Both the position numbers and the translations under genes were made by a program. DNA of 64,000 nt from an uncultured delta proteobacterium (GTDB taxonomy: Bacteria; Desulfobacterota; Binatia; UBA9968). Shown here one piece after another: positions 9,489 to 45,969 of the stretch. Below the pieces are notes generated by a model, which made no database searches, had not been told where the DNA came from, and saw only the letters and a list, made by a program, of their open reading frames with translations. Where the stretch lies: assembly GCA_963727625.1 (NCBI GenBank), contig CAVSHR010000004.1:891850-955849 (forward strand). The letters are read 5' to 3'. Numbering within the stretch: position 1 is the first letter of the stretch; each line of letters opens with the position of its first letter.

Positions 9489-9511
9489 GACCACCAAAAC
9501 CTACAACAACC

Positions 9512-11797: not shown

Positions 11798-11881
11798 TCG
11801 TCACACCGAAATGGAATCGCACAAAACTCGTTTCACCACGAAGATCCCAATGCAGCGAAATCCTAACCCTATCTCGGAGTA

Positions 11882-11968: not shown

Positions 11969-12040
11969 ACTTTGTGCGGCTGCGCCGTGCTGGGATCTTC
12001 GTGGTGTCTCCCTCGTTGCGGCCCGCTCGCGAGAACGCGC

Positions 12041-19489: not shown

Positions 19490-19963
19490 ATGAAACAAAC
19501 GATCCATGTCACGGTTAACGGCCGGCTCTACGAAGAAGACGTCGAGCCCCGTCTACTCTTGGCCCATTTTCTCCGCGAGAAAATCGGTCTCACCGGCACT
19601 CACATCGGCTGCGTCGTCGGCGAGTGCGGCGCCTGCTCGGTGCTGCTCGACGGTAAAGTGGTGAAATCCTGCCTCCATTTCGCCGTGCAGGCGGACGGCC
19701 GGGAAGTCACCACCATCGAAGGGCTCGCGAAAAACGGCGAGCTCAATCCGGTGCAGGAAGCGTTTGTGAAGAACTATGCATTTCAGTGCGGCTATTGCAC
19801 GCCGGGCATGGTGATGACGAGCTACGCTCTTTTGCAAACCAATCCCAACCCGTCGGAAGCGGAGATCCGCAAGGCGCTCGCCGGCAATCTTTGTATGTGC
19901 ACCGGCTATGTGCAGATCGTCGAAGCGGTCAAAGAAGCGGCAAAGGGAATGAAAAATGGCTAA
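19490..19963 (+). CDS. Molybdenum hydroxylase small [2Fe-2S] subunit, cluster 2
   Basis: It has CVVGECGACSV and CGYCTPG...CMCTGY motifs and is 157 aa long. Confidence 0.9.
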   Translation: MKQTIHVTVNGRLYEEDVEPRLLLAHFLREKIGLTGTHIGCVVGECGACSVLLDGKVVKSCLHFAVQADGREVTTIEGLAKNGELNPVQEAFVKNYAFQCGYCTPGMVMTSYALLQTNPNPSEAEIRKALAGNLCMCTGYVQIVEAVKEAAKGMKNG

Positions 19964-22382
19964 GTTTGTCGGCAATCGTTCACGAAGCAAAGAAGGTCCG
20001 CGACATGTTACGGGCAGAGGGTTATTCACCGACGATTTCACCCTGCCCGGCATGCTCCAGGCGATGATCCTGCGCAGCCCCCATGCTCACGCTAAAATTT
20101 TGTCCGTCGATCCGGCCGAGGCGCTCAAGAATCCCAACGTCTTTGCCACGATCACGCCGGATGATGTCAAGAAAATGACCAAACCCTTCAAACCCGGCCG
20201 TTACGCCGCGGGGTTGAAACGTCCCATCGATGAATACGCCGGAGCGGTGGACAAAGTCCGCTATGTCGGCGAGCCGCTCGGCGCGGTGGCGGCCAAAGAT
20301 CGGGGCACGGCGGAAGACGCTCTGGAATTGATCCAAGTCGAGTATGAGCCCCTCCGCGCCAATGTCGATGTCCATGAAGCGATCAAGCCGTCGTCCGCGG
20401 TGCTCTTCGATGAGCTCGGCACCAATCTCGCGTGGACCGGTTCGCTGCAATACGGCGACATCGATGCAGCGTTCCAATCTGCCGACCGAATCGTCAAAGA
20501 GAATTTAAAAATTCACCGTTACAGCTCGACGCCGCTCGAACCTTTCGTGGTCATCGCGTCCTACGACGCGGCGAGCAAGCGCTTGACCGTATGGGTCACG
20601 GCGCAAGTGCCGGAAGTGATCTACGACGGACTGCGCGAAACCCTCGGCCTGCAGGATGTCCGCGTGATCATTCCGGATGTCGGCGGCGGCTTCGGCCAGA
20701 AGATTCATCTGATTCGCAAATACGTCATCCTGATTTCGCTGCTGGCGATGAAAACCGGCCGGCCGGTGAAATGGATCGAAGACCGCACCGAGCATATGAT
20801 GGCCGGCGGCCACGCTTGCAACCAAGACGTCGAAGCCCAAGCCGCGGTGAAAAACGACGGCACCGTGCTCGGTCTCAAGTTCAAAGAATACGACGACGTC
20901 GGCGGCTCGATCAGCACCCTGACGATCCACTTCACCAACAAGCTCAATAATCTGTCGAACACTTACAAAACACCGGCCATATCCATGGAAGGCCACGCGG
21001 TGGTGACCAACAAGTGCCCGGTGGTTCCCAACCGCGGCATCGGCAAGCCCGGCATGTGCTTTATCTGGGAACGGATGATGGACCGGGTCGCCCAGGCGCT
21101 TAACTTGAGCCCCATCGAAGTGCGGCGCAAAAATTTGATCCAGGCCGACCAGATGCCCTACACCACGATCAGCGGCAACGTTTACGACAGCGGCGATTAT
21201 CCCGGCCTGCTGAAAACGCTCCTGGAAAAAATCGACTACGACAAGCTCCGCGACGATCAGAAAAAAGCCCGCGCGGAAGGCAAGCTCATGGGCATCGGCG
21301 TCGTCATCGGTGTCGAGCCCGGCGGACGCAACGCCGCGCGCGACATGGCGATCTTTCCGGAAATGAAAGAGCCGCCCGGCTCCGGCGGCATCAACGGCGC
21401 AAAAATCAAACTCGAGAAGAACGGCACGCTCTCGCTCCATCTGGGCTCGCCCAACTGCGGCCAGGCCCATGAGACCACCACCGCGCAGGTCGCCGCCGAG
21501 ATTCTCGGCTCGACGCCGGACAGAATCAGCACCAGCATCCCCTTCGATAGCGATCTGTCTTCGTGGGGCGTGGCGGCGGCCAACAGCGGCAATAATTTTC
21601 ATCTCTACGACATCGGCGCGATTCACGGCGCGGCCCATAAGCTGCGCGATAAAATCCTCAAGCTCGCGGCCTACAATCTCAAAGTCGAGCCGTCGGCGTT
21701 ATCCATCGAAGACAGCGTAGTGAAAGTGCCCGGCGCGCCGGCCAAACAAATCACCTTCGCCGAGCTCGGCCGGATCGCCTACAACAACCAGCATCTGATT
21801 CCAGACGATATGGAGGCCGGACTGGAGGCGACCCATTACTACACGTTTCCCCACGCCAAGCCCAATATCGTGCCCGGCGCCGACCGCAGGGTGCGCGCCC
21901 AGTTCTCCTTTTCCGCCGGTGCCCACGCGGCCATCGTGGAAGTGGACAAGAATACCGGCTCGGTGCATGTGCTGCGCTATCTGATCGTCGGCGACAACGG
22001 CGTGGTGATCAATCCGGACGTGGTCAACGGGCAGGTCTACGGCTCCGCCGCGCACGGTATCGCTGTCGCGCTCGGCGAGGGGTTCATGTACAGCCCGGAA
22101 GGGCAGCCGTTGACGATCACTTATCTCGACTACGGCAAATGTTCGACAGCCGAGACACCGCGGGTCGAGGTCATCCATCAGCCCTCCCCCTCGCCGTTTA
22201 CGGCGCTGGGGCAGAAGGCCGCCGGCGAAGGCGCGGCGATCCCCTCGCCCGCCGCCATCGCCAGCGCGGTGGAAGACGCGCTCCAACCGTTCGGCGTGAA
22301 AGTTTGCGATCTTCCGATCACACCGGAATCGGTGTGGCGCTTGATCAACCACAATCCGGAAAAAGAGCGGAGGACCTTCTAG
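19956..22382 (+). CDS. Molybdenum hydroxylase large subunit, cluster 2
   Basis: The 808-aa ORF has a GGGFGQK motif and the family architecture. It overlaps the small-subunit gene by 8 nt. Confidence 0.9.
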   Translation: MAKFVGNRSRSKEGPRHVTGRGLFTDDFTLPGMLQAMILRSPHAHAKILSVDPAEALKNPNVFATITPDDVKKMTKPFKPGRYAAGLKRPIDEYAGAVDKVRYVGEPLGAVAAKDRGTAEDALELIQVEYEPLRANVDVHEAIKPSSAVLFDELGTNLAWTGSLQYGDIDAAFQSADRIVKENLKIHRYSSTPLEPFVVIASYDAASKRLTVWVTAQVPEVIYDGLRETLGLQDVRVIIPDVGGGFGQKIHLIRKYVILISLLAMKTGRPVKWIEDRTEHMMAGGHACNQDVEAQAAVKNDGTVLGLKFKEYDDVGGSISTLTIHFTNKLNNLSNTYKTPAISMEGHAVVTNKCPVVPNRGIGKPGMCFIWERMMDRVAQALNLSPIEVRRKNLIQADQMPYTTISGNVYDSGDYPGLLKTLLEKIDYDKLRDDQKKARAEGKLMGIGVVIGVEPGGRNAARDMAIFPEMKEPPGSGGINGAKIKLEKNGTLSLHLGSPNCGQAHETTTAQVAAEILGSTPDRISTSIPFDSDLSSWGVAAANSGNNFHLYDIGAIHGAAHKLRDKILKLAAYNLKVEPSALSIEDSVVKVPGAPAKQITFAELGRIAYNNQHLIPDDMEAGLEATHYYTFPHAKPNIVPGADRRVRAQFSFSAGAHAAIVEVDKNTGSVHVLRYLIVGDNGVVINPDVVNGQVYGSAAHGIAVALGEGFMYSPEGQPLTITYLDYGKCSTAETPRVEVIHQPSPSPFTALGQKAAGEGAAIPSPAAIASAVEDALQPFGVKVCDLPITPESVWRLINHNPEKERRTF

Positions 22383-23240
22383 ATGATTCCCGGTGCTTTC
22401 GAATACTATGCGCCCCGCACTTTGAGCGATGCGGTGAGATTCCTCGCCGACCATAGAGACGATGTAAAAATACTTTCCGGCGGCCAGAGCCTGCTGCCGC
22501 TCATGAAGATGCGCTTGTCCAAGCCCGCTTTTGTCGTCGACATCGGCCGCATACCCGGTCTCGACACCATCCAACAGGAAGGCGACGATCTCGTCGTCGG
22601 CGCGCTGGTGACCCACGAACAAATCGAGCACTCCGATCTGCTCAAATTGAAATGCCCGCTACTGCCTCAGACCGCGACGACCATCGCCGACGTCCAGGTG
22701 CGTAACCGCGGCACCATCGGAGGCAGCGTCGCCCACGCCGATCCGGCCGGGGATTGGCCGGCAACCGTTATGGCGCTGGACGCGGAAATCAAGATCGTCG
22801 GGCCCAACGGCGAGCGCTGGATTAAATGCGATGAGTTTTTTCTCGGGTTGCTCATGAGCGTGCTCGAGCCGGACGAGATCGTCACGGCGATAAAGGTGCC
22901 GGTTACCGGCGCGGATAAAACCGCTTATTTAAAAGCCGCGCCGCGCTCTTCCGGTTTTGCCGTCGTCGGCGTCGCCGTACGACTGGCTCTGGATTCTGCG
23001 GGAACTTGCAGTGGCGCTACGGTCGGCATCACCGGCGTCACCGATAAGGCCTACCGTGCCGACCGCGTCGAACAAATACTTACGGGCAAGAAGCTGGAAG
23101 CAGCCGTGATTCAACAAGCAGCTGCCCAAGCCTGCCGCAACATCGAAGTGATCGAAGACATCAACGGCTCTTCCGAGTACCGCAAGCACTTGACCGAAGT
23201 GTATGTGGCGCGGACTATAGAGACGGCGCTGCGGCGCTAG
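22383..23240 (+). CDS. Molybdenum hydroxylase medium (FAD-binding) subunit, cluster 2
   Basis: The start is immediately adjacent to the large-subunit stop. It shows the pattern ...KILSGGQSLLPLMKMRL... and the C-terminal SSEYRKHL typical of CoxM/XdhB-like subunits. Confidence 0.9.
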   Translation: MIPGAFEYYAPRTLSDAVRFLADHRDDVKILSGGQSLLPLMKMRLSKPAFVVDIGRIPGLDTIQQEGDDLVVGALVTHEQIEHSDLLKLKCPLLPQTATTIADVQVRNRGTIGGSVAHADPAGDWPATVMALDAEIKIVGPNGERWIKCDEFFLGLLMSVLEPDEIVTAIKVPVTGADKTAYLKAAPRSSGFAVVGVAVRLALDSAGTCSGATVGITGVTDKAYRADRVEQILTGKKLEAAVIQQAAAQACRNIEVIEDINGSSEYRKHLTEVYVARTIETALRR

Positions 23241-23321: not shown

Positions 23322-24206
23322 CTAAAGCATCCGTCTCCGTAAATACGAACTTAGGTAATCCACCAGCGTTACCAGAATATAGATCGCCATGATCAGCGTC
23401 AGCAACTGATTTTCGAGAAACAAGCTGATGGCGATATAGATGCGCTGTCCCAGGCCGCCCGCGCCGACAAAGCCGAGGACGGCGGCGACGCGGATATTCA
23501 CCTCCCAACGATAAAGCGTGTAAGAAATAAATTGCGGCAGGACCTGCGGCACGATCCCGTAGAAAAAAATTTGCAACTTGTTGGCGCCAGTGGCTTGCAG
23601 CGATTCGATGGGCTGAGGATCGACGTCCTCCAGAACCTCACCGAACAATTTGCCGAGCACGCCGCCCGTGTGAACGCCCAGAGCCAAGACACCGGGAAAT
23701 GGGCCTAAACCGACGAGGAATACAAAAATCAACGCCCAAACCATTTCCGGTATCGTGCGCAGGATATTAAGCAAGCTCTTGGCAACTAGGTAGGGCAGGA
23801 AACGCAGGCCGCGGCGCCAGCCCTGTTTAGGCTCCATCTCGTATAGCAGTCCCGAGTAAATCAGATTGCGCGACGCAAAAAAGACCATCGCCAGCGCGAT
23901 CACCACCGCCATCAGGGTGCCCATGAACGATATTGCGAAGGTCTCGACCGAGCCCGTGGCCGCTTCGCGCAGAACGGTGGGCGAAAAATCGGGCGGGACG
24001 AGCCTCGTCATGTAGATAAGAATCTGCTCGCCGCCATCGCGACTGAAGAGCTGGGTGAGATCGATGCCGGCACCGCGGTAACTCCACACGAGAAATACCA
24101 ACATGCCGGCAAGAACCAGCGTGTTGGCGATCTTCGAACTCTTCCCGGATACCGCACCCGAGACCGGTATCGTCTCGCAGCTATTGGGATTCATCGGCCG
24201 GCTCAT
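23322..24206 (-). CDS. phnE: Phosphonate ABC transporter permease
   Basis: This multi-TM protein is a paralogue of the upstream permease. Its start overlaps the upstream stop (ATGA), and it sits in the phnDCEE gene order. Confidence 0.85.
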   Translation of the reverse strand: MSRPMNPNSCETIPVSGAVSGKSSKIANTLVLAGMLVFLVWSYRGAGIDLTQLFSRDGGEQILIYMTRLVPPDFSPTVLREAATGSVETFAISFMGTLMAVVIALAMVFFASRNLIYSGLLYEMEPKQGWRRGLRFLPYLVAKSLLNILRTIPEMVWALIFVFLVGLGPFPGVLALGVHTGGVLGKLFGEVLEDVDPQPIESLQATGANKLQIFFYGIVPQVLPQFISYTLYRWEVNIRVAAVLGFVGAGGLGQRIYIAISLFLENQLLTLIMAIYILVTLVDYLSSYLRRRML

Positions 24207-25057
24207 ATCATCGCGCGCACCTTGGCGCTCACGTAATCGACCGCCGCCACCATGACGAACAGAATCATGAGAATCGTCAGCACCTCGTTGAAATTGAACA
24301 TGCGCATGGAAATCTCAATCTGCTGGCCCAAGCCCCCCGCGCCGACCAGGCCAAGAATCGCCGACGCGCGCACCGCGCATTCCCAACGGTATAAAGTGTA
24401 GGAGACGAAATTTGGCAGGGCTTGGGGAAACCAGCCGTAGAAAAAAATTTGCAGCTTGTTGGCGCCGACGGCCTGCAGCGCCTCGAGCGGGCGGTGATTG
24501 ACCGCTTCGAAAATTTCAGAATATACCTTGCCGAGCATACCGCCGTAAGCGACACCGATCGCCAGCACGCCCGGAAACGGCCCCAGTCCGACAGCGCGCA
24601 CGAACATAAATGCCCAGACAAACTCGGGGATACAGCGAAACAGGCTAAGGACGCCGCGCGCGAAAGCATAGGCAGCGTAGCGCATCCCCTTGCGCAGCGG
24701 CGTTCCCTGCAACTCCGCTTCATTGAGGATGCCCCGAACGGTCAGCGTATTGGTGCCGAGCAAGCCGAGCGGAAAGCCAATCAGCACGGCGATGAGAATG
24801 CCCCAAAAAGAGATTTGAATGGTTTCCAGGGTCGGTCGCAGCATGAGCGACAAAAAACTGCCGGAAAGCTCCGGCGGAAACATTCCGGTAATGAATTTTC
24901 CCAACGCCGCTCTGCCGCGCGGCTCGAAGAAAATCATCGGATCGACACCAGCCCGCCGCCAGCTTTCGACCACGGCGAAAATGAAGAGCCCGATAAAAAC
25001 GTAAGGGAAAAGAGACTTATCCGACTGACGGATAGGCGACTGGACCGATTCTTTCAC
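24203..25057 (-). CDS. phnE: Phosphonate ABC transporter permease
   Basis: This is a multi-TM PhnE-like protein. The track start at 25120 overlaps phnC by 104 nt, so the start was trimmed to the GTG at 25057 (uncertain). Confidence 0.8.
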   Translation of the reverse strand: MKESVQSPIRQSDKSLFPYVFIGLFIFAVVESWRRAGVDPMIFFEPRGRAALGKFITGMFPPELSGSFLSLMLRPTLETIQISFWGILIAVLIGFPLGLLGTNTLTVRGILNEAELQGTPLRKGMRYAAYAFARGVLSLFRCIPEFVWAFMFVRAVGLGPFPGVLAIGVAYGGMLGKVYSEIFEAVNHRPLEALQAVGANKLQIFFYGWFPQALPNFVSYTLYRWECAVRASAILGLVGAGGLGQQIEISMRMFNFNEVLTILMILFVMVAAVDYVSAKVRAMI

Positions 25058-25847
25058 TCGCTCCCTCGACGCTGGAGTGATCGCGGAAATTGCCGGAGTA
25101 CAAATCCTCGAGCATCGCATCCGTGATCTTGTCAGGCGCGAGATCGAAGGCTATCTTGCCCGCTTTTATACCAATGACGCGGGGGAAATAGGCCAGGGCC
25201 AGGTCGACGCTGTGAAGACTGACGATCAGTGTTTTCGCGGTGTTTTGGCTGATTTCGATCAACAACCGAACGATGGTTGTGGCCAGCGTGGGATCGACCG
25301 AAGAAACCGGTTCATCGGCGAGAACCACCTCAGGACCTTGCATCAACACCCGGGCGATCGCGACCCGTTGCTGTTGCCCGCCGGACAGCTCGTCGGTGCG
25401 CTCGAAAAGTTTCTCACCGATGCCAACCCGGCTGAGCGCTTCGTGGGCCAGCGTCACATTCGCAGGTTTCACCAAAGACCACAGCGAACGGAGTGTCGAC
25501 CAGCCGCCCAGTTGCCCGGCCAGGACGTTGTGAATCACGCGCAGGCGGGGCACGAGATTGTGCTGCTGGTATACACTGCCGATAAGACGGCGCGTGCGCC
25601 GCAAATCCTTACCGTGCAGCGCTTGTACATCTTCCCCGCTGATCCAGAGCTTCCCCGAGGTCGGCCTTAACGTACAATTTAGCAGGCGAAACAGTGTAGT
25701 CTTACCGGCACCGCTCGGTCCGATCAGAGCGACGCGCTGGCCTTTGGCGATCTCAACACTGACGCCATCGAGGGCAACTTGATGGCGGCCAAACAGCTTG
25801 CGGACGTTTTCTAAGCGATACTGGAACTTCGATGGCAATGGACTCAC
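25017..25847 (-). CDS. phnC: Phosphonate ABC transporter ATP-binding protein
   Basis: It has Walker A GPSGAGKTT, the signature LSGGQQQR and Walker B VVLADEP. Confidence 0.9.
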   Translation of the reverse strand: MSPLPSKFQYRLENVRKLFGRHQVALDGVSVEIAKGQRVALIGPSGAGKTTLFRLLNCTLRPTSGKLWISGEDVQALHGKDLRRTRRLIGSVYQQHNLVPRLRVIHNVLAGQLGGWSTLRSLWSLVKPANVTLAHEALSRVGIGEKLFERTDELSGGQQQRVAIARVLMQGPEVVLADEPVSSVDPTLATTIVRLLIEISQNTAKTLIVSLHSVDLALAYFPRVIGIKAGKIAFDLAPDKITDAMLEDLYSGNFRDHSSVEGASERIGPVAYPSVG

Positions 25848-25850: not shown

Positions 25851-26708
25851 TTATTTAAGCAACCCCGCGGCAATCGCCGCTTCTTCGATGCCCTTCCAGT
25901 CCGCATCCTTGGCGACGATGTAGCCTTTGGTCCGATGCAGATCGAGAAGTTTCTTGTCTTTCGGTTTTCTGTAGTCGAGCTTCAAAAACGCCTTGGTAAT
26001 CTTGTCGACCGTCCCTTTGTCGACTCCGGCGCGCACCATCCAGACATAATCAACATAAGGAGGAGTCGTCCAGAAAATCACCACCTTTTTGGTGTCCACC
26101 TTCTTGGATTGCACCAGCTTGTCCCAAACCAGAAAATTGAGCGCGCCCGCGTCTACCTGCCCCGCTTCAACCCAAGCCGCGGTGGCGTCATGAGCGCCGC
26201 TGAAACTGAACTTGGAAAAATCCTTTTCAGGATTGATTCCGTTCTTAAGCAGATAATAACGCGGCATGAGATGCCCGGAGGTTGAGCTGACGCTGCCGAA
26301 GGCGAAGGTTTTGCCCTTGAGATCCTTCAAAGACTTGATACCGGTTTCTTTGCGGGTAATGAAATAACTTTTGAATTGCGCGTCCTCTTTGCGCATGATG
26401 ATGCGGTGCGCTCCTTTGGCCTGTTTCGCTGCTTGGACGGAGGTCAAGCCGCCGTACCACACCATCTCCAAGCGATTCGCCGCCAGGCCTTCCACCGTCG
26501 CGGCGTAATCGACCACAGGGGTGAATTTCACCGGTATCCCGATCTCTTTGGTCAGATAATCCGCGAACGGCTGGTAAATCCGCAGCATTTCTTGCGGGTT
26601 TTCATCCGGGATCGCCGAAATCCGCAGCGCTTTCAAAGCTTGAGCTGAAACGTTCTGAGTGAACAGTGCGAGCAGCAGCGCGAAACCCATTGTGAGTGTT
26701 TTATTCAT
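25851..26708 (-). CDS. phnD: Phosphonate/phosphite ABC transporter substrate-binding protein
   Basis: It is PhnD-like (...TPVVDYAATVEGLAANRLEMVWYGG...), with signal peptide MNKTLTMGFALLLALFTQNVSAQA and a GGAGG SD before the ATG at 26708. Confidence 0.85.
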   Translation of the reverse strand: MNKTLTMGFALLLALFTQNVSAQALKALRISAIPDENPQEMLRIYQPFADYLTKEIGIPVKFTPVVDYAATVEGLAANRLEMVWYGGLTSVQAAKQAKGAHRIIMRKEDAQFKSYFITRKETGIKSLKDLKGKTFAFGSVSSTSGHLMPRYYLLKNGINPEKDFSKFSFSGAHDATAAWVEAGQVDAGALNFLVWDKLVQSKKVDTKKVVIFWTTPPYVDYVWMVRAGVDKGTVDKITKAFLKLDYRKPKDKKLLDLHRTKGYIVAKDADWKGIEEAAIAAGLLK

Positions 26709-26746
26709 CGACAATTCCTCCAAGACTCCATCGACGGTTAATTAAA

Positions 26747-26880: not shown

Positions 26881-27351
26881 CTAAGAATTTTCCCTGAGAA
26901 ACGCCAAAACTTCTTGGGGATGGGCCTCGGCTTTCTTAACGGCAGGCCAATGTTTGACGACTTCGCCCTTCGGTCCGATCACAACGGTGGAACGGATCGT
27001 GCCTTCGACTTCTTTGCCGTACATCATCTTCCGTCCCCACGCGCCGTATTTCTTCATCATTTCGGTTTTCGGGTCCGACAACAAAACGAAGGGCAGCTTG
27101 AAACTTTCAACGAACTTGTTATGCGACGCGATGCTGTCCTTGCTCACACCGAGCACGACAACACCGGACTTTTTCAAGTTCGGTGTCAGATCGCGGAACC
27201 CACAGGCTTCTTTGGCGCAGCCCGGGGTGTTGTCCTTGGGATAGAAATACAACACCAGAGTCCTGCCCTTGTAATCGTCCAGCGAGTGTTTTTTCCCGTC
27301 GTTGCCATCGAGGCTGAACGCCGGCGCTTTTTTGCCTTCAAGATTTTTCAT
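26881..27351 (-). CDS. bcp: Thioredoxin-dependent peroxiredoxin Bcp (Cys form)
   Basis: It reads [20 protein letters not shown], with peroxidatic and resolving Cys spaced C-x4-C, and is 156 aa long. Confidence 0.9.
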   Translation of the reverse strand: MKNLEGKKAPAFSLDGNDGKKHSLDDYKGRTLVLYFYPKDNTPGCAKEACGFRDLTPNLKKSGVVVLGVSKDSIASHNKFVESFKLPFVLLSDPKTEMMKKYGAWGRKMMYGKEVEGTIRSTVVIGPKGEVVKHWPAVKKAEAHPQEVLAFLRENS

Positions 27352-27488: not shown

Positions 27489-27770
27489 TCATTCGGTCAC
27501 GTTGACGCCACGCCAAAACGCGACGTAGTTCCTGATTCGCTGTGCCGCCTGCTTGGGCTCGGGGTAGTACCAGGCGGCGTCTTGATTCAACTGGTCGCCG
27601 ACCTGCACGTGATAGTAGCTGGCCAGTCCCTTCCATGGGCAGGTCGTGTGCTTGTCGCTGGGACGAAAAAGGTCTCGCTTCACCGAGTTCGGCGGAAAAT
27701 AGTGATTGCCCTCCACTTGAAGGGTTTGATCAGACTCTGCCAAGACCGCCCCGTGCCAAATTGCCTTCAT
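27489..27770 (-). CDS. DUF427-domain protein
   Basis: The pattern MKAIWHGAVLAESDQTLQVEGNHYFP...CPWKGLASYY is the DUF427 pattern. A GGAGGAG SD precedes the ATG at 27770. Confidence 0.8.
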   Translation of the reverse strand: MKAIWHGAVLAESDQTLQVEGNHYFPPNSVKRDLFRPSDKHTTCPWKGLASYYHVQVGDQLNQDAAWYYPEPKQAAQRIRNYVAFWRGVNVTE

Positions 27771-27799: not shown

Positions 27800-29156
27800 C
27801 TATGAGACACAGCGAAACTTTGCAAAGACATAGGGATAATGAGCCTGATACCAATTGCGGAAGCTTGGCCGCAACAAATTCGCATCCGTCGCCCAGGATG
27901 CGCCTTTGAGGACAAAATGCTTGCCGTCGAAAAAATCCCGCGAATAATCCGGATAGCTTTCAATATAGGATGAAAAGCCTGGAAAGGGCTCAAACGGCGT
28001 GTCGGTCAGCTCCCAGCCATTGCCGACCAGTTCGAGCACTCCCCAGCGGCTCGCTCCCGCCAGGCGGGAGCCAACGGGTAGCGGCGCCCAGGAAAGAAAA
28101 TCAAAATTACCATGGCGAGCGCCGGGAGCTGAATTGCCCCATGGATGTTCCGACTTCCGCCCGTCGGGGCCGTAATAGGCCGCGCGGTGAAATTCTGCCT
28201 CGGTCGGCAAGCGCTTGCCCGCCCAGCGCGCATAAGCCCGGGCCTCCGCCAAGCTCACGTATACCGGCCAGCTAGCCGCCTGTTGCAGTGGAAAGCTGTC
28301 GAACATCGCACGATAAAACCATGCGCCGTCGCGCTGAAACCAACACGCGGGACAGCGCTTTCCTTCGAGATTTTTCCAGCGCCAATCTTCCCGCCGCCAG
28401 TGGCGCGCGTCCTGGTAGCCCCCGGATGCGACAAATTCGAAAAACGTCCCCGTTGCTAACCGGTAGCGAGTCGATTTTGAATGCCGGCACGTCAACGAAC
28501 CTCTCGTCGAATTCATTGTCCCAACCGAAAGATATCTCGCCGAGTTTTGCGCCCAACCTTGCGCGACCGGCGGGAATCGTGATGGCGTGCGAAAACGCCG
28601 CGGTCTGAAACGAGTACTGAGGCGCGAACTTGGCCCGTCGCTTCCGTGCCGGCGGCACTCGCTGAAGCATGTAAGCGAGCGTCTCCTGATGCATGTACTC
28701 ATGCTCCAGGATCATTTGAAACACCCGCCCGTTCTGCGCCATGGGACTGTTCGATCGCGAGCCGCCGAGCGCTTCCAATGACTCCAAAATCGCCCCACGC
28801 ACATGATCGCGGTACTCAAGCGTCTCCGCCAGACTCGGCCAGCTCTCCGGCACTTCCGGGTGCCAGTGGCATTCCCCTGTGTCCACGTCCGGATCGATAC
28901 CGCGGCAGAAAAGATCGTCGAAATAGGGATTGAAGGATTTCCAATGGAGCAAAGCGCCGCAAACCTGGTTCCAGGAAAACGCCGGCAGATGGCCGATATA
29001 GAATATAAACGGATGGCGCCAAACGATCGGCTGGGCCTGGATCTCGTCGGCCGGAAGCATCGCAAAGATTTTATCGGTGCGCGCCCAGGCGGCAAGAAAC
29101 AGGCCGCGAAGCTCCTCCATCGTGTCAAGCACATTGCGGATAACCGGTAGTGCCAT
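27800..29156 (-). pseudogene. EgtB/OvoA-like sulfoxide synthase (DinB_2 + FGE-sulfatase domains) interrupted by a 1-nt frameshift
   Basis: The N-terminal frame (29156..28272) carries H-x3-H-x-E (EHEYMHQE) and GWDNEF. The C-terminal frame (28702..27800) carries the FGE-type domain. The frames switch at ...PVSNG|(T)FFEFVASGGY within the homopolymer context GGGGACGTTTTT (28440..28451). Confidence 0.75.
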
Positions 29157-29255: not shown

Positions 29256-30167
29256 CTAGGCCTGTTTGAGAAACTCTCTGAAGGCTTGCGCGATCGGATG
29301 GAGCGGCCGGCGGCGATGATAGACTTCGTAAAATCCCCGTTCCATCTTCAAGCCGCGAATCGGCACTTCAACGATGCTACCCTCGGCCAGCTCGCGGCGA
29401 ATGGATATGCGCGACAGAATGGAGATGCCGAAGCCGCCCATCAACGACTCCTTGACTGCTTCCGTGCTGCCCAGCTCCATCGAAATATGCAGCAACTCGG
29501 CTCGCGAGCGCCGCCCCTTGGCAAGCAGCTGATTGATCGAATCAAGGGTTCCCGAGCCATGCTCCCGCGAAATGAAGTTCTCGCTGTGTAAATCGGCGAC
29601 CTCGACGAACTCCCGCAGGCACCAGTGATGGCCATGGGGAACCGCGAGTACCATCTCATCGTCCCAAATTTTTTTGAAACAGAGTCTTTCATCGCTGCCT
29701 TTGAAACCGACAAAGCCAAGCTCGACCTTGCCCTCGAAAACGTCTTCGATGATGCCGGACGAATCGCCGATGCGCAGTATCGGTTTCACCGCGGGATATT
29801 TTTTCGTGAACGCGCCGAGCTTTTGCGGCAACAGATACTCGCCGGGAATGTTGCTGCCGCCGATCCAAAGTTCGCCGCTGAGCGTGCCATGAAATTGCTC
29901 AACGGCGGCCATGGCTTCGCGTTTGAAGGCAAGCAGGGTTTTAGCCCGTTCCGCCAAGAGCTGCCCCAACGGAGTCAGGCTGATCCGGCCATGCAGTCGA
30001 TAAAGCAGCTGGCCGCCGACGGCTTCTTCCAATTCCTGCACATGGGCGCTGACCGTGGGCTGGCGCAAATCGAGCAGCTCGGCGGCCTGAGAAAAGCTCC
30101 GCATTTCAGCGACCCAGTAGAATATTTCTAGCTTGTGAAGATCTAAATCTGTTTTGAGCTTGGCCAT
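29256..30167 (-). CDS. LysR-family transcriptional regulator
   Basis: It has the N-terminal HTH LEIFYWVAEMRSFSQAAELLDLRQPTVSAHVQELE and a LysR substrate domain. The start was trimmed to MAKLKTDL. Confidence 0.85.
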   Translation of the reverse strand: MAKLKTDLDLHKLEIFYWVAEMRSFSQAAELLDLRQPTVSAHVQELEEAVGGQLLYRLHGRISLTPLGQLLAERAKTLLAFKREAMAAVEQFHGTLSGELWIGGSNIPGEYLLPQKLGAFTKKYPAVKPILRIGDSSGIIEDVFEGKVELGFVGFKGSDERLCFKKIWDDEMVLAVPHGHHWCLREFVEVADLHSENFISREHGSGTLDSINQLLAKGRRSRAELLHISMELGSTEAVKESLMGGFGISILSRISIRRELAEGSIVEVPIRGLKMERGFYEVYHRRRPLHPIAQAFREFLKQA

Positions 30168-30275
30168 CGAGATTGGCGCGCGGCGCGGTTTTAATCGAGG
30201 AATCGGTCTGCAACAAGAAACCGGGGAGCATGGCACGCACTGAACGCGCCATGCTCCGCGGCGACAGCGTTGCCG

Positions 30276-30743
30276 CTACTTGGTTAAAAACTCCAGAACC
30301 TCGGCTGGATGCGCGCCGGCATCGGTGACTGGAATCCAATGCTTCTTAATCGTGCCGTCGGGACCGATCAAGGCCGTCGAGCGAATCGTCCCGTCAGAGA
30401 CTTCGCCCTGGGCATTCTTGCGCGGCCCCCAGGCTCCGTAGACTTTCATCGTGTCCTTTTGCTGGTCAGCCAAGAGCACAAACGGAAGGTTAAACTTGCT
30501 GATGAATTGATTGTGCGAATCGATGCCATCCGGGCTGACACCCACCACCACGGTATTCGCTTTAGTCACGGTATCGATAGCGTCGCGGAACCCGCACGCT
30601 TCCTTGGTTCAGCCCGGAGTATCGTCTTTAGGATAAAACCAAAGAATCACATTTTTGCCGGCGTAGTCGGCCAGCGAGTGTTGCTTTCCGTCGCTTCCCG
30701 CTAGTGTGAACGCCGGCGCTTTTTGTCCTTCAAGTCCTGCCAT
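30276..30743 (-). CDS. Bcp-type peroxiredoxin with in-frame TGA (probable selenocysteine) at the peroxidatic position
   Basis: Track ORFs 30609..30800 and 30276..30569 are in the same frame and are separated by a single TGA (30609..30611). The joined protein reads ...[20 protein letters not shown]..., collinear with the Cys paralogue. GGAGG lies 6 nt before the ATG at 30743. Confidence 0.7.
30580..30599 (-). promoter_or_regulatory. Candidate bacterial SECIS hairpin
   Basis: The mRNA reads UGA ACC AAG GAA GCGUGCGG-GUU-CCGC(G)ACGC. This is an 8-bp stem with one bulged G that begins 10 nt after the UGA, with a G/U apical loop. Confidence 0.45.
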
Positions 30744-30864
30744 TTGCCACCTCCGTGTATAATTAGATGTCTGGTTTCTATCACACCGAGAAAGTATCAA
30801 TCAAACATCGAGTAACCAAGAGGCGCATTGTCATCAGCGCCGGTTGCAGCTATATTTCCCGAGA

Positions 30865-36953: not shown

Positions 36954-37925
36954 CTACACATAGTGCTGAATCCGCTCCAGGCTGGGCGCGAAGAACAGCT
37001 CTTCGACCTTCGGCTTTTTCTTGATCATCCCCTGCTCATACTCGTACCGAATCACCGCTTCAAGCGCCTTGCGGTTTTCTTCGAGATTGTAAGGCCAGGG
37101 ATCGGCGCCGAAGATTTCCTTCTGCTCGCGCATCAGATCCTGCACCCAGACCAGCGCGAAACTGCGCGGGTCGCTGTTGCGCGCGTAGCAGATTTCCTTG
37201 GCCTTCTGAAACGCCCGCACCAGGCTGATGCCCACCCAGGGATGCCTTTCGAGAATCGGATTCTTGACCACCACGGTATGCATGATCGGAAAGAAGCCGC
37301 CGTTTTTGTAGTATTCGATTTCCGCTTTTTTCGGCGCGGGGAAAAGCAACGCAACCTTCGGGTTGCTGTTTCGGATCGACGGCAGGGTTTCCGGGTAGAG
37401 CGCCGCATCGAGCTCGCCATCGAGCAACATCTGATCGACGTTTTTCCCCGTCGGCACGCGTCGCACGTTCATCCACTTGGCCGGCTCAAAGGCAATATCC
37501 TCCTCTTCCTGACACCACCATTCGATGGTCTTGAGATCGACGTCGTAATGATCCTGCAAGATGCCGCGCATCCATAGCCCCGCGGAATTTTGCAGCGTGT
37601 CCAGGCCGACTCGTTTGCCGTTCAGATCGGACGGTTTTTCGATATCGCAGCCGGTGCGCTTCACCATGTACTGATGGCGAAACCGGCGGTGCGGAAAGAC
37701 CGGAATCGCGTTGTAGTTGCAGCCCTTGTCGCGGGACACGAGATAGCCAACCAGGGACAATTCACAGACATCAAATTCCTCGTGCCGCAGCATGCGGCCA
37801 TGGCGCTCAGGCGACGGCATCGTCAAGACGTTGAGCTCGATGCCCTGAGGTTGAATTTCGCCGTTGATCAGCGGCCGCAGAAAATCGTAATCGCCGCAGG
37901 CGAGCGTGAGTTGCAGTTTGGCCAT
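36954..37925 (-). CDS. Periplasmic-binding-protein-fold enzyme similar to 4,5-dihydroxyphthalate decarboxylase
   Basis: The N-terminus LACGDYDFLRPLINGEIQPQGIEL...FDVCELSL...IPVFPHRRFRH matches my recollection of PhtD-type decarboxylases. There is no signal peptide. Confidence 0.65.
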   Translation of the reverse strand: MAKLQLTLACGDYDFLRPLINGEIQPQGIELNVLTMPSPERHGRMLRHEEFDVCELSLVGYLVSRDKGCNYNAIPVFPHRRFRHQYMVKRTGCDIEKPSDLNGKRVGLDTLQNSAGLWMRGILQDHYDVDLKTIEWWCQEEEDIAFEPAKWMNVRRVPTGKNVDQMLLDGELDAALYPETLPSIRNSNPKVALLFPAPKKAEIEYYKNGGFFPIMHTVVVKNPILERHPWVGISLVRAFQKAKEICYARNSDPRSFALVWVQDLMREQKEIFGADPWPYNLEENRKALEAVIRYEYEQGMIKKKPKVEELFFAPSLERIQHYV

Positions 37926-38516
37926 TCATTCTCCTTTGACATGTTGACGGAAAAGCTCGGGAGTGTCGATGTCGACCGTGATCCCTTCCTGGTCGGTCTC
38001 GATCTCGAGGGTGTCATCACGGTGCGCATTCACGACGGCTTTGGCACCTTGATCCATCGGCGCCGCCAGCAGTTCGGCGAAAAGAGCCCGCGAAAAAATC
38101 ACCGGGTGTCCTCTCCTGCCCTCGCGGCGAGGCACCACGATAAGTTTTTGCGACTCATAAAAGCGACGTATCATCTCATCGACCAATATGGGATCGATGT
38201 AGGGATGATCGACCAGATGGACCAGCATCCCCTCGCAATCGGCTTCCGACTCTAAGCGCCGCACGGCAACTTGCAGCGAGGATAATTGGCCGCGCATATA
38301 ATCCGAATTGACTAAAATTTCGACGGGAAGATGCTCGATGCGCCGCCTCATGTCCTCGGCGTTGTGGCCGAGAATCACGATCACCTTGCTGACAGAGCTC
38401 TGCTTAAGGGCGCTGACGATTCTCTCGATGAACGTTTGACCATCAATTGGCAACAGCGCTTTGGGCCGGCCCATGCGGCTCGATTCGCCCGCGGACAGAA
38501 CGACGGCAACGATCAT
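37926..38516 (-). CDS. mocA: MobA-like NTP transferase, probably molybdenum cofactor cytidylyltransferase
   Basis: It reads LSAGESSRMGRPKALLPIDGQTF... The stop abuts the start of the downstream gene. Confidence 0.7.
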   Translation of the reverse strand: MIVAVVLSAGESSRMGRPKALLPIDGQTFIERIVSALKQSSVSKVIVILGHNAEDMRRRIEHLPVEILVNSDYMRGQLSSLQVAVRRLESEADCEGMLVHLVDHPYIDPILVDEMIRRFYESQKLIVVPRREGRRGHPVIFSRALFAELLAAPMDQGAKAVVNAHRDDTLEIETDQEGITVDIDTPELFRQHVKGE

Positions 38517-38531: not shown

Positions 38532-39524
38532 CTATTGATAAACCTTATCGATAAAGCCGCTCTTATCGAGCTCCCTTACGATGCTGTTGTCGACGATGTC
38601 GTCGACGCGCAATGAAGCGCCTCTTCTTCTTGCCAGCGCGTCCTTGATCTGGACTTCGGTGCCTTCCCGCGTGACCAGCGGCACTTTGTCATAGAGCTTG
38701 GCCACCGCGTTGTAAGAATCTTCCAGATAGGCAGGATTGGTCTGCTTGCTGTATCTGGCGATCAGTTTTTTGCTCTCTTCTTTACGGGTTTTGAAATAGT
38801 GGGTAGCCTCGATCAAACCCATCAGGACCCGCTTGACGGTGTCCCGATGGCCGGTGAGATAGGACTTGGTCGTGGTGGCGCAAATATAAGGAAACTCGAA
38901 GCGCGTTTGGAAATCGGCGGTGCTGATCAACACCCGATGGGGCATTCCCTGGGCCAATTGAATAATCCCCGGCGGAGAAGGAAAGCCAGCGATTCGGCCG
39001 CTCCGAAAGGCGCCGGCTCTCTCGGGCGCGCCGCCCACTTGCAGAATCGGCACGTCTTTAACCGGCTCCAGACCCAGTCCCCTGATCAGAACCCGCGCCG
39101 CTACGTCCGACGCGCTGCCCACTCGGCTGATGCCGATGCTTTTCCCTTTAAGATCCTCCGCGGATTTGATCGACTGCTGCACAACCAGCTCGTAGGGAAG
39201 CGTGTTGAGCATGCAGCCTACCATCACGAGATGTGCACCGCCTACGGCGGCGCTGGCCACGCCTCCCCCGGACGCGTTCCCGATCGGAACGTCACCGGCA
39301 ATGATGCTGGAAACGGCTGTCGTGGTGCTCGGAATATAGATCAGTTGGCTGTCAAGGCCGTTCTTCTTGAAAAAACCCGCGTCCTGGGCCGTATACCAAA
39401 CCGCGTTGCTCGCATCCACCGAGCTATAGTCCATTTTGATTTGCACTTGCGCGCGGGCGGCGGCGTGCCAGCACAACATACTCCAGAACAATGCGAAGAT
39501 TACCGTCCTCCAACGCATATCCAT
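38532..39524 (-). CDS. NMT1/THI5-like ABC substrate-binding protein
   Basis: It has signal peptide MDMRWRTVIFALFWSMLCWHAAARA and is a paralogue of 48438 and 57401. The start was trimmed from 39590. Confidence 0.75.
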   Translation of the reverse strand: MDMRWRTVIFALFWSMLCWHAAARAQVQIKMDYSSVDASNAVWYTAQDAGFFKKNGLDSQLIYIPSTTTAVSSIIAGDVPIGNASGGGVASAAVGGAHLVMVGCMLNTLPYELVVQQSIKSAEDLKGKSIGISRVGSASDVAARVLIRGLGLEPVKDVPILQVGGAPERAGAFRSGRIAGFPSPPGIIQLAQGMPHRVLISTADFQTRFEFPYICATTTKSYLTGHRDTVKRVLMGLIEATHYFKTRKEESKKLIARYSKQTNPAYLEDSYNAVAKLYDKVPLVTREGTEVQIKDALARRRGASLRVDDIVDNSIVRELDKSGFIDKVYQ

Positions 39525-39662
39525 GTATCGCGATCCTCCTGTCAAGAATATTTGCCGGAAACCTATCCTTTTTCCCTGGCAGAGAACCAATTAAACTCTA
39601 CAGCGCAGAATGAATCAACCAATTCGGCGAGCGGGAAGAAGGGATTGCGCAAGCCAGGGCAC

Positions 39663-40763
39663 TTATTCAGCCGGCAGCGCCATGCATTCGCCGGCCGGCA
39701 GCTCAACCCAAACCGGCGTGCCGCGGCGCACTTGCAAGGTGTAACGTTGGTGGGTCTGCAAGGTATTCTTACCGAGCTCGATGGCGCATTCGAGATATTC
39801 GCCGAGAAACATCGCCGCGCCGACTTTGCCCTCGATAACATTGCCGTCCTTTGCGGGTTTTTCCAGAAGTACATTGATGCTTTCCGGCCGCACCACCACG
39901 ACGACCTTGCTGCCCACCGACAGGCCATCAAGCAACATGCATTTGAGCCTGCCGTCATCGGTCTTAACCTCTCCCGAGCCGTCGGATTCGACTTTGGAAA
40001 CCTCGCCGGTCATCTGATTGGTTGAACCGATAAAGTTGGCGACGAATTTACTTTTTGGCTGCAGGTAAACCTCGCGCGGCGCGCCTTCCTGGATGATCAC
40101 GCCGGCATTCATGATCGCGATTTTATTCGACATCGACAGCGCTTCGATCTGATCGTGGGTAACGTAAAGCGTGGTGATCCTCAGGCGGCGCTGCAGTTCA
40201 CGCAGCTCGAAGCGCATGCGTTCGCGTAGCTTGGCGTCCAAATTGCTCAAAGGTTCGTCCAGTAGCAAGACCTGCGGCTCGCGCACCAGCGCCCGAGCCA
40301 ACGCGAGGCGCTGCTGCTGGCCGCCGGACAACTGCGTCGCCATGCGTTCTTCGTAGCTGTCTAACTCCACCTGGGCGAGCGCGTTGCGCACTTTCTTATG
40401 GACATCACTATTGCTAAAGCGCTGCTTGCCGACGCGCAAGGGAAATGCCACGTTTTCGAACACGGTAAGATGAGGCCAGATCGCGTAGCTTTGGAATACC
40501 ATGCCAATCGGCCGGCGATAGGCAGGCACAAAGGTTCGTTCAGAAGCTGAATAAACCTTTGTTCCCGACACGATGATTTCACCCTCATTGGCTTTTTCCA
40601 AACCGGCGATACAGCGAAGCGTCGTGGTTTTACCGCAGCCGGATGGCCCGAGCAGCGTATAAAAGCGACCTTCCTCGACGGTGAACGAAATGTCGTTGAC
40701 CGCCTTGACGCCGGCATTGTCGCCATCCTCGTATATCTTAACCAGAGACTTAACCTCTACCAC
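39663..40763 (-). CDS. ABC transporter ATP-binding protein (Fe3+/spermidine-putrescine PotA/FbpC type)
   Basis: It has Walker A GPSGCGKTT, LSGGQQQR, LLLDEP and a C-terminal TOBE-like region. Confidence 0.9.
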   Translation of the reverse strand: MVEVKSLVKIYEDGDNAGVKAVNDISFTVEEGRFYTLLGPSGCGKTTTLRCIAGLEKANEGEIIVSGTKVYSASERTFVPAYRRPIGMVFQSYAIWPHLTVFENVAFPLRVGKQRFSNSDVHKKVRNALAQVELDSYEERMATQLSGGQQQRLALARALVREPQVLLLDEPLSNLDAKLRERMRFELRELQRRLRITTLYVTHDQIEALSMSNKIAIMNAGVIIQEGAPREVYLQPKSKFVANFIGSTNQMTGEVSKVESDGSGEVKTDDGRLKCMLLDGLSVGSKVVVVVRPESINVLLEKPAKDGNVIEGKVGAAMFLGEYLECAIELGKNTLQTHQRYTLQVRRGTPVWVELPAGECMALPAE

Positions 40764-40781: not shown

Positions 40782-42506
40782 TTATGATTGAATACCGACC
40801 TTGCCGGTAAGCTTGTAAAAGAGCGCCACGATGCTCAATAGCGTGGCAATCATCAAGACACCGATCGCGGCAACGACCGTGACTTGGCCCTGCTCGAACA
40901 TGGTAAACAATAAAATCGACAGCACCCGGCTTTCGCCGGTGGCAAGCAGAACCGAAGTGGAAAATTCCCGAAACGAAACGATAAAGATGTAAATCCAGCC
41001 CGCCACCAGTCCTGGCCGCAACAGCGGCAAGGTCACCCGCTTGAAGCTTTCCCACCACGAAGCGCCGGAAGCCGACGCGGCCTCCTCAAGCTCGCTGTGA
41101 ATTTGCAGGATCGAGCCTGAAGCCGAGCGCATGCCGTAGGGTATATAGCGGGTTACATAGGCAATCAGCAAAACCCAGATGGTGCCGTAGATCGGAATCG
41201 GAAAAGCGACGTAGAGCAGAATCAGCGCCATGCCCATGACGATACCCGGAATCGTAATCGGCACAAAAGCGAGAAAGTCCAGTATCCAAGCACCGCGGAG
41301 CTTGCTCTTGTAGACGATCCACGCGACCAATGACGTCAACACCATCGCAACCGTCGCAGTAAGCGTCGCCAGGATGATGCTGTTTTTCATCGCGTCCCAA
41401 AATGGCCGAAAGCTCCCAAGATAGCGATAATTGTCGAGGCTGAGTTTATCCAGAGCGTCCCATCCAGGCGTGGCAAAAAATGGCAGGAACGAAGCCCAAA
41501 ACAATACCAGAAAAGGCAGCAGCACAACGCATAGAAAATAAGTCAGTAAAAAGCCCAGGCCGACCCAGCGCCAGGTGCCCAGGTCGAATTGGCGCGGCCT
41601 AAACGCCTTGCCCGTAACGGTTTGAAACTTCTTGCCTTCCTTGGTCGCCCGCGTATACAGCCACACGCCGACCGCGCTTAATAACAGCAGCCCCACCGCC
41701 AATGCACCGCCGCGGCCGTAGTCGGGGGGGTACTCGTTGAAAGCCAGGTAAATTTCACTGGTGTAAACGTAAATTCGCGCCGGAATACCGATCAGCGCGG
41801 GGGTCTCGAACGACTCGAGAGTGCGGACAAAGAGAATCAACAAGACCGATCCGGCAGTCGGCATGAGCAAGCGCAGAGTGATGCGCTTGAAGGTTTGTAA
41901 GGTGCCGGCGCCGGACATCATGGCCGATTCCTCAAGAGACGGATCCATGGACTTGAACGCAGCCACCATGAGCAGAAACGCCAGCGGCACCTGTCCCACC
42001 GAGTGCACCCAAATCATCCCGGGCAGGGAAAAAACGTTGAACGGCGCCGACTGCAGTCCAAACAGGCTCATCAGCCACACGTTAAGGTAGCCGAATTTCG
42101 GACTGAGCAGAAAAATCCACGCGATGGCCTCCAATACCCCCGGAAGAATCAACGGCACGACGGCAAGCGGAACGAAGATCGCCCGCAGCGGCGTATTGGT
42201 GCGCTCGGTCAGCCAAGCGAGCGATGTTCCAAGGAGAAAGGATAATATCGCCGAGCCCGACGCGAAGATCAAGGAATTCATGAACGTCGAGTAGGTGTAC
42301 TGGCTGGCGTACGCGGCCTGATAGTTCTTCAGAGTATATACGAACTCGCGCGGCGCCACCTCGGCTTGAAAGCTGCCGATGAGCAGCATCAACAGCGGCA
42401 AGACCGCCAGATAGATGAGGATTCCGGCGCCGACCAACGGAATCAGCAACGCCGGATCCAAAGAAAAGCTCACTCTGCCGGTGCGAGGCAATGTGGCAGT
42501 CGCCAT
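40782..42506 (-). CDS. ABC transporter permease, fused double-domain (FbpB-like)
   Basis: The 574-aa ORF has about 12 TM helices and two repeated permease halves. Confidence 0.85.
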   Translation of the reverse strand: MATATLPRTGRVSFSLDPALLIPLVGAGILIYLAVLPLLMLLIGSFQAEVAPREFVYTLKNYQAAYASQYTYSTFMNSLIFASGSAILSFLLGTSLAWLTERTNTPLRAIFVPLAVVPLILPGVLEAIAWIFLLSPKFGYLNVWLMSLFGLQSAPFNVFSLPGMIWVHSVGQVPLAFLLMVAAFKSMDPSLEESAMMSGAGTLQTFKRITLRLLMPTAGSVLLILFVRTLESFETPALIGIPARIYVYTSEIYLAFNEYPPDYGRGGALAVGLLLLSAVGVWLYTRATKEGKKFQTVTGKAFRPRQFDLGTWRWVGLGFLLTYFLCVVLLPFLVLFWASFLPFFATPGWDALDKLSLDNYRYLGSFRPFWDAMKNSIILATLTATVAMVLTSLVAWIVYKSKLRGAWILDFLAFVPITIPGIVMGMALILLYVAFPIPIYGTIWVLLIAYVTRYIPYGMRSASGSILQIHSELEEAASASGASWWESFKRVTLPLLRPGLVAGWIYIFIVSFREFSTSVLLATGESRVLSILLFTMFEQGQVTVVAAIGVLMIATLLSIVALFYKLTGKVGIQS

Positions 42507-43579: not shown

Positions 43580-43609
43580 ATCAAAAAACCTCCAGTTAAA
43601 TTTGTAGCG

Positions 43610-43658
43610 ACGGCGGGCGCCAACCACGTCCGGTTTTCTACCAATTGGCGCCCGCCGT
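43610..43658. repeat. Perfect 14-bp inverted repeat (intercistronic stem-loop)
   Basis: ACGGCGGGCGCCAA (43610..43623) pairs with TTGGCGCCCGCCGT (43645..43658) around a 21-nt loop. It lies between binding-protein genes 2 and 1. Confidence 0.55.
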
Positions 43659-43686
43659 TTCAATACACCGATCCTATTGGGGAGGG

Positions 43687-44709: not shown

Positions 44710-44822
44710 GAATCCTCCTTGGTTATTTCAATTGAGCATTTGCAGCCGCTTAGAGCCCTGGGCTCCCCACGCCTTTGTAACTGCCTACAGGCCTAAATCA
44801 AGCGACTTGGCCCAAAACTCAG

Positions 44823-45848: not shown

Positions 45849-45969
45849 GAAACCTCCTTTTTCTACGGTCACCACAATACTGCGAGACTACTATCGATTC
45901 ACCCGCTCGCTCTAAACTGAATCGCTCCGTCCACGCCCTTGGGTCACAATGCCCAGGGGCAAACCAAAT

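Follow-up and report, generated by a model that had tools for sequence, protein, structure and literature searches.

A probable selenocysteine-containing Bcp peroxiredoxin encoded across an in-frame UGA codon in an uncultured Binatia bacterium

A peroxiredoxin gene interrupted by a single in-frame UGA

The stretch of DNA analysed here, referred to as the window, comprises 64,000 nucleotides (nt) of contig CAVSHR010000004.1 (positions 891,850 to 955,849, forward strand) in GenBank assembly GCA_963727625.1, an uncultured delta proteobacterium of the Binatia. On its minus strand lies a gene for a peroxiredoxin of the Bcp/PrxQ type in which an in-frame UGA is probably read as selenocysteine (Sec). 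A first-pass annotation made from the sequence had noticed that two open reading frames (ORFs), 30609..30800 and 30276..30569, share one frame and are split only by a TGA, and had joined them into a 155-codon reading from an ATG at 30743 with a Shine–Dalgarno sequence. Coordinates and translation bear this out. Along the minus strand, GGAGG (30754..30750) is followed after 6 nt by the ATG, 44 sense codons, the TGA at 30611..30609, 110 sense codons and a TAG. The TGA is the sole interruption of the frame, which otherwise runs intact to the TAG, and the 110 codons downstream of it are uninterrupted in the joined translation, as had been claimed. The joined protein begins MAGLEGQ and finishes EVLEFLTK.

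This protein matches the Pfam family PF00578 (AhpC-TSA) with 122.7 bits over residues 6–134, a domain that spans the UGA, and its top matches in the PDB are BCP structures (3drn, 5enu and 3gkk) in which the peroxidatic residue aligns with codon 45. The window also holds a paralogue with Cys at this position, placed 3.4 kb away by the first-pass annotation; the distance between its Cys codon and the TGA is 3392 nt. Alignments with this paralogue and with the BCP structures confirm that the TGA falls exactly at the peroxidatic Cys position. The motif reads P38-K-D-D-T42-P-G-U45-T-K-E-A-C50, with the resolving Cys indeed retained five residues further along (codon 50, 30596..30594). We take the spacing of peroxidatic and resolving residues, CP-x4-CR, to be that of C45 and C50 in Escherichia coli BCP. 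Some distant Sec forms, from Vulcanimicrobiota/Baltobacteraceae, have Ser and not Cys at the resolving position. Scores against two NCBIfam equivalog models fall below their cutoffs (PrxQ/BCP NF053650, 153.9 versus 260; NF006960, 116 versus 140), and by best match the gene is assigned to the broad Bcp/PrxQ group, not as an equivalog of these two curated models. By analogy with that group, the protein presumably functions in a thioredoxin-dependent manner.

Conservation of the UGA codon across genomes

Homologous loci were sought in one genome for each GTDB species, and 80 were returned. Codon 45 is TGA in 82 gene copies, the window's own included, at 41–95% protein identity, and TGC or TGT in 15. 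The TGA copies come from ~75 species-level genomes, each assembled independently, plus a single additional metagenome contig. In 29 close relatives (77–95% protein identity) the codon is TGA and the remaining frame is open; the metagenome-assembled genomes (MAGs) concerned are labelled Candidatus Binatia, 'uncultured delta proteobacterium', Syntrophobacter sp. and similar. TGA is likewise present at distant loci (41–59% identity) from Acidobacteriota, Planctomycetota, Latescibacterota, Gemmatimonadota, Vulcanimicrobiota/Baltobacteraceae, Dormiibacterota, Polyangia and Actinomycetes. A peptide seed, WFYPKDDT, was used to gather these distant forms, and it possibly enriched for Sec forms.

We compared the window gene with 28 full-length orthologues. 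The ratio of non-synonymous to synonymous substitution rates (dN/dS) is 0.01–0.08 over codons 1–44 and 0.02–0.14 over codons 57–153, with dS near 1 or saturated, and these low values on both sides of the TGA indicate that both halves are maintained as protein. None of the 28 has a further stop or frameshift downstream, and the orthologues also conserve the amino acids of codons 46–58, a segment upstream of every possible restart codon. Conserved as it is across genomes, the TGA is neither an assembly error nor the mark of a pseudogene. The first-pass annotation had worried that TGA might be a misassembled TGC, and the recurrence of the codon in so many independent assemblies answers this; it had also suggested looking for TGA/TGC alternation, and both codons do occur among the homologues, including the orthologues of the Cys paralogue.

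Protein databases give a different picture. Among the best 120 protein-database homologues, all of them full-length, 118 have Cys at this position, the exceptions being P0001 and P0008. Gene callers are unable to read through TGA, and Sec forms are therefore missing from such lists. The exception P0008 (locus L085, 236..703) has 'W' in the database protein and TGA in the DNA. In the public gene call this TGA is rendered as Trp, apparently under a TGA=Trp code, and P0008 thus came to be listed in protein databases as a full-length 'W' form. In P0001 the residue at the Sec position is Arg.

Three Sec-Bcp orthologues in long-read MAGs of the MFD series (L029, 6001..6467; L025, 6001..6450; L028, about 1900..2360) carry internal frameshifts, which are consistent with assembly indel errors and not with gene decay. 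We also considered the Trp within the seed peptide WFYPKDDT as a residue linked to Sec and rejected it. The pattern is produced by the search seed itself; Sec forms with Tyr or Phe exist (L085 and the Sec paralogues), as do Cys forms with Trp (L069 and L077).

A constrained hairpin downstream of the UGA

Immediately past the UGA, the hairpin GCGUGCGG-GUU-CCGC(G)ACGC occupies 30599..30580, with 9 nt separating the UGA from the first stem base, and its predicted folding energy is about -13 to -15 kcal/mol. Across 29 clade sequences including the window, mean synonymous entropy is 0.13 bits at codons 48–55 (GAA GCG UGC GGG UUC CGC GAC GCU) versus 1.18 bits in 105 other conserved degenerate codons (Mann–Whitney p = 1.9e-6), a test that is independent of the choice of structure. 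The same sites are free in Cys forms, where GCC/GCG/GCA, UGC/UGU, GGA/GGC/GGU/GGG, UUU/UUC, CGU/CGA/CGC and GAU/GAC all occur. Cys forms lack the hairpin and also fold more weakly, with a mean minimum free energy of -7.7 kcal/mol (n=15) versus -11.6 kcal/mol in TGA forms (n=82).

Substitutions that do occur preserve pairing. Locus L022 alone changes GCG to GCA together with GAC to GAU, a G-C pair becoming A-U, and L085 has the same A-U version (GCA...GAU) as a third instance. Across 18 aligned sequences, all eight stem pairs are of standard type (144/144 cells) and two pairs have changed on both sides; none of 500 shuffles matches this pairing with two compensatory pairs, and slid registers pair in 19–62% of cells, although the tested structures were chosen after viewing the same sequences and the pairing scores are somewhat inflated for that reason. 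Vulcanimicrobiota/Baltobacteraceae forms have a perfect stem of 7 base pairs, GCGUCGC-AGUUUC-GCGACGC, with one compensatory pair. In the Acidobacteriota and in Sec versions of the paralogue the stem lies 6 nt further downstream, (U/G)(C/G)G(C/U)UC - CGUGAUNN - GA(G/A)C(G/C)(A/C), and here 132/132 cells are paired and three pairs are compensatory. The first-pass annotation had made conservation of the hairpin among TGA-containing orthologues a test of its reading. What we find there is a set of frozen synonymous sites, compensatory changes and absence of the hairpin from Cys forms.

The distance from UGA to apical loop is 17 nt, and the loop, GUU, starts with G. Bacterial selenocysteine insertion sequence (SECIS) elements are described as having 16–37 nt between UGA and apical loop (PMC10778597) and a small apical loop containing guanosine (PMC1088965). 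Judged on predicted structure, spacing and loop of the window hairpin fit this published geometry.

At the distant Sec-Bcp loci (L032–L080), the conserved codons 46–58 accommodate three or more hairpin layouts, which differ between phyla. In the Acidobacteriota, certain compensatory changes alter residues as well (Phe/Leu together with Asn/Ser), a hint that protein sequence and SECIS element have co-evolved. A pseudoknot formed by the two alternative Acidobacteriota stems was ruled out by reasoning on geometry, as no nucleotides are left for a third loop.

Genetic code and additional selenoprotein candidates

Of 54 large ORFs in the window, 14 terminate in TGA; among them are cysS and a GcvT-like gene, whose profile alignments reach the model ends. 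As an ordinary stop in these ORFs, TGA cannot have been generally reassigned to sense. A pair of genes at 3467..6663, encoding 467 and 602 amino acids (aa), was suspected to be selA–selB and was rejected: the 467 aa gene is cysS, and no family matches the 602 aa product. Mechanical listing of in-frame TGA codons gave 118 candidates for a second selenoprotein in the window, none of them convincing, and a literature search on Sec use in Binatia gave nothing relevant.

Interpretation and alternative explanations

We are confident that the gene encodes a UGA-recoded, Sec-containing Bcp, predicted to be an intact atypical 2-Cys peroxiredoxin of the Bcp/PrxQ type. The first-pass annotation had preferred a Sec-containing Bcp to two small genes or a pseudogene, and TGA conservation, purifying selection, hairpin constraint and membership of a known family all agree with that preference. 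In the mechanism we propose, SelB–GTP–Sec-tRNA(Sec) would bind the hairpin during translation, and the bound hairpin would recode UGA-45 as selenocysteine instead of stop. The U45 selenolate would attack peroxide, Cys50 would resolve the resulting selenenic acid into an intramolecular selenenylsulfide with U45, and a thioredoxin-type reductant would reduce that bond. Sec insertion, SelB binding and the catalytic cycle are drawn by analogy from the family, and we infer both that this organism has the Sec machinery and that the residue inserted at UGA-45 is selenocysteine.

Several results weigh against this interpretation, in addition to the inflation of the pairing scores. The window hairpin alone folds no better than chance (z = -0.51; 55/200 shuffles fold as well). 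The first-pass proposal of a SECIS-like hairpin thus stands as to its presence at 30580..30599 and is supported comparatively, but it is not significant in the single sequence. Taken singly, the predicted hairpin is no evidence; only the comparative data give it meaning. Rfam SECIS families gave no match on 30480..30700 even at E <= 10, a negative that says little because short in-frame bacterial SECIS hairpins are hard for covariance models. ARAGORN found no tRNA-Sec in the window or in 32 related loci, and Rfam, like ARAGORN, recovered only tRNA-Gly and tRNA-Arg in the window. NCBIfam or Pfam scans of about 35 larger window ORFs gave no match to SelA, SelB or SelD. A tblastn search of the window and all related loci with an E. 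coli SelD sequence was also without a match; this negative is weak. Finally, since the distant loci were found with the seed WFYPKDDT, the ratio of Sec to Cys forms here is no estimate of prevalence.

Could the gene simply be broken? A nonsense pseudogene, that is, a Cys-Bcp with a TGC-to-TGA mutation or an assembly or sequencing error and no full protein product, would not be out of place locally: a probable indel error or real frameshift lies nearby in the EgtB-like gene, and the functional Cys paralogue 3.4 kb away could render this copy dispensable. Such a history is at odds with TGA in 82 copies from independent assemblies, with a downstream dN/dS of 0.02–0.14 at saturating dS in orthologues that have no further stops or frameshifts, and with hairpin codons held at synonymous sites. 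We give it next to no weight and regard it as effectively refuted by these comparisons. Mechanical ORF calling and public gene callers do split such loci (into fragments of 46 aa and 83 aa on the P0021 contig, for example), as would be expected of two small genes, here an N-terminal peptide of 44–63 aa ending at the TGA and a 97 aa protein from the GTG at 30569. However, neither piece has a complete thioredoxin fold or active site, the second has no Shine–Dalgarno-like sequence or conserved start, all orthologues conserve the protein sequence of codons 46–58, which separate the TGA from the GTG, and the pieces are always in one frame with exactly one TGA between them. Two separate genes are accordingly as improbable as a pseudogene.

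Recoding without Sec is harder to dismiss, and we still consider it very unlikely. Cys could be inserted through Cys-tRNA(Sec) under selenium limitation, or the hairpin could stimulate near-cognate read-through with Trp or Cys. Conservation of hairpin and TGA proves recoding and leaves the inserted residue unspecified, and searches of the window and of the flanks of related loci turned up no Sec machinery. On the other hand, the UGA stands precisely at the redox-active Cys position of a family established as Sec-containing, the hairpin has bacterial SECIS geometry and the adjoining genes are selenium-associated. As TGC would supply Cys more cheaply, long retention of TGA and hairpin across many phyla is hard to explain without Sec.

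Comparison with known systems

A Sec-containing peroxiredoxin that falls in the Bcp group (COG1225) and has a TxxU motif has been an established bacterial selenoprotein family since 2004–2006 (PMC1088965, PMC1794560, PMC13188914). It was represented by 43 genes in Sargasso Sea data (PMC1088965) and reported from deltaproteobacteria-like anaerobes such as Syntrophobacter fumaroxidans, Syntrophus aciditrophicus, Anaeromyxobacter dehalogenans and Geobacter metallireducens (PMC1794560), and a 2026 review lists a peroxiredoxin family with the motif PxxxTxxU among bacterial selenoproteins (PMC13188914). The window gene shares with this family (COG1225/PF00578) the AhpC/TSA fold, PxxxTxxU, the UGA at the peroxidatic position, a SECIS-like hairpin directly past the UGA, widespread Cys homologues and deltaproteobacteria-like hosts. 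Compared by motif and family criteria, nothing differs in kind; the window copy comes from an uncultured lineage and has a setting of its own, a clade-specific cluster with a selenium-associated LysR regulator, an EgtB-like protein, DUF427 and a second Bcp. Every sequence-level feature that defines the family is present in the predicted gene.

Cys-type BCP/PrxQ proteins (E. coli BCP; 3drn, 5enu and 3gkk) have the same length, about 155 aa, and UGC or UGU as the peroxidatic codon, where the window gene has UGA. PrxU of Eubacterium acidaminophilum (NF040737) also has Sec at the peroxidatic position of a peroxiredoxin, but it belongs to a different subfamily and measures about 230 aa; the window protein scores 43 bits against the NF040737 cutoff of 270 and is thus not PrxU. 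The window hairpin resembles the E. coli fdhF-type SECIS in lying within the coding region about 10 nt past the UGA and in its small G-U apical loop. It differs in sequence, and a G on the 3' arm forms its only bulge.

The gene is an ordinary unannotated selenoprotein of an already known family, and our understanding of selenoproteins is unchanged by it. Some value lies in the effects on annotation, in the several covarying SECIS layouts and in a conserved, selenium-flavoured gene cluster whose EgtB-like enzyme is uncharacterised. At present the gene, like dozens of its orthologues from soil and sediment MAGs, is split, shortened or mistranslated, and antioxidant capacity and selenium dependence are consequently under-reported in Binatia-like bacteria, Acidobacteriota, Vulcanimicrobiota, Dormiibacterota and others. 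Covarying hairpin layouts over the same codons offer a compact natural data set on the mutual constraint of SECIS and protein sequence. The gene also marks the organism as a probable selenium user, at a locus that further contains a selenium-associated regulator and a putative selenate importer.

The neighbourhood and the second Bcp gene

Table 1 Features of the peroxiredoxin gene and its neighbourhood in the window.
Feature	Coordinates	Strand	Basis
Probable Sec-containing Bcp/PrxQ peroxiredoxin coding sequence, 155 codons (ATG 30743..30741, TAG 30278..30276)	30276..30743	-	Translation, Pfam, PDB matches, 28 full-length orthologues with the same architecture
In-frame UGA, codon 45, probably read as Sec at the peroxidatic position of PxxxTxxU	30609..30611	-	TGA in 81 other gene copies; TGC/TGT in Cys homologues
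Resolving Cys, codon 50 (UGC), five residues past Sec and also within the 5' arm of the hairpin	30594..30596	-	TGC invariant in 29/29 orthologues
Shine–Dalgarno-like GGAGG, 6 nt upstream of ATG	30750..30754	-	Direct sequence reading
SECIS-like hairpin GCGU-GCGG / GUU / CCGC-(G)-ACGC	30580..30599	-	Folding, frozen synonymous sites, 144/144 pairing, distance rule
Terminator-like hairpin, 14 pairs, then T-rich tail, 18 nt past the stop codon	30225..30257	-	Hairpin pairing and T-rich tail
Selenium metabolism-associated LysR regulator	29256..30167 (probable start Met 30167; mechanical ORF to 30236)	-	NCBIfam NF040786, 261.3 bits versus cutoff 250; syntenic in 32 loci
EgtB/OvoA/SenA-like sulfoxide-synthase homologue (DinB_2 + FGE-sulfatase)	27800..29156	-	Domain scans; frameshifted near 28440..28450
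DUF427 protein, 93 aa from internal Met	27489..27770	-	Pfam PF04248, 116 bits; L081 gene call likewise 93 aa
Paralogous Bcp with Cys (TGC) at the peroxidatic position	26881..27351	-	Sequence; orthologues in six related genomes TGA
Binding protein of a putative selenate ATP-binding cassette (ABC) transporter	25851..26723	-	NCBIfam TIGR04553, 340.7 bits versus cutoff 250
ABC transporter ATPase and permeases, downstream of the binding protein	25017..25847 (ATPase); 23322..25120 (permeases)	-	PhnC- and PhnE-type

The first-pass annotation had placed the Sec-Bcp gene at the head of a same-strand run of LysR, EgtB-like, DUF427 and Cys-Bcp genes. All of these are present, but a strong terminator-like hairpin (30257..30225) intervenes between the Sec-Bcp and LysR genes, and the Sec-Bcp gene is therefore probably its own transcription unit and not the head of an operon. 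Cluster order is syntenic within the clade and not in distant phyla.

Among its orthologues the paralogous Bcp has TGA in L003 (10097..10562), L008, L018, L019, L023 and L026, and TGC or TGT in the window and nine other loci; as read from these codons, it is a clean case of Sec/Cys alternation. In L003 and others the second Bcp lies about 3–4 kb downstream of the first. Four of the six Sec paralogues have the shifted hairpin GGGUUC-CGUGAUUU-GAAC(C/U)C, and in L008 and L023 the stems have no bulge and sit where the window's stem does. In the protein database, the nearest Cys forms (for example P0003, P0007, P0021 and P0046) are directly upstream of an EgtB-like gene in similar clusters. On the 12.6 kb contig of P0021 the gene caller splits a Bcp into the two AhpC-TSA fragments cited above. 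One contig with such a Cys-form cluster also bears a split Bcp, presumably of the Sec type, beside NUDIX and GcvT.

The window's EgtB-like gene breaks into two overlapping frames where a GGGG...TTTTT stretch occurs, either through a long-read homopolymer indel error or by a real frameshift; the L003 orthologue (7554..8912) is intact and encodes 452 aa. The intact protein scores below cutoffs and about equally against OvoA-N (259), EgtB (224) and SenA (220), from which it may be a separate branch of the enzyme family. By family assignment, the LysR regulator, the PhnD/PhnC/PhnE-type transporter and the two Bcp genes together form a selenium-flavoured locus. One could imagine the whole cluster (GcvT-like, Sec-Bcp, LysR, EgtB-like, DUF427, second Bcp and selenate transporter) as a selenium-responsive pathway that makes or recycles a thio- or seleno-histidine-type compound, with both Bcp proteins as dedicated reductases of sulfoxide, selenoxide or oxidised forms and not as general peroxide scavengers. 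We consider this idea speculative and rather unlikely.

Other genes in the window

The window contains two gene sets for molybdenum hydroxylases of the xanthine-dehydrogenase/CO-dehydrogenase family, at 9461..12901 and 19956..23240, both on the plus strand. Models of selenium-dependent molybdenum hydroxylases score weakly on these sets, and no link to selenium was established. A MocA/YgfJ-like cytidylyltransferase at 37926..38516 (minus strand) scores 167 bits, under the cutoff of 186. Four ORFs, 3467..5275, 14544..15704 and 36954..37925 on the minus strand and 38799..40025 on the plus strand (602, 386, 323 and 408 aa, respectively), have no NCBIfam match (E <= 1e-6 to 1e-12), and for the 602 aa and 408 aa ORFs there is also no Pfam match at E <= 1e-5. 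Of these, the 602 aa ORF shares 16 nt with the end of cysS. Four tandem paralogous genes for extracellular solute-binding proteins (SBP_bac_1/6/8/11) occupy 42563..46986 on the minus strand, and a fused double ABC permease at 40782..42506 adjoins this tandem.

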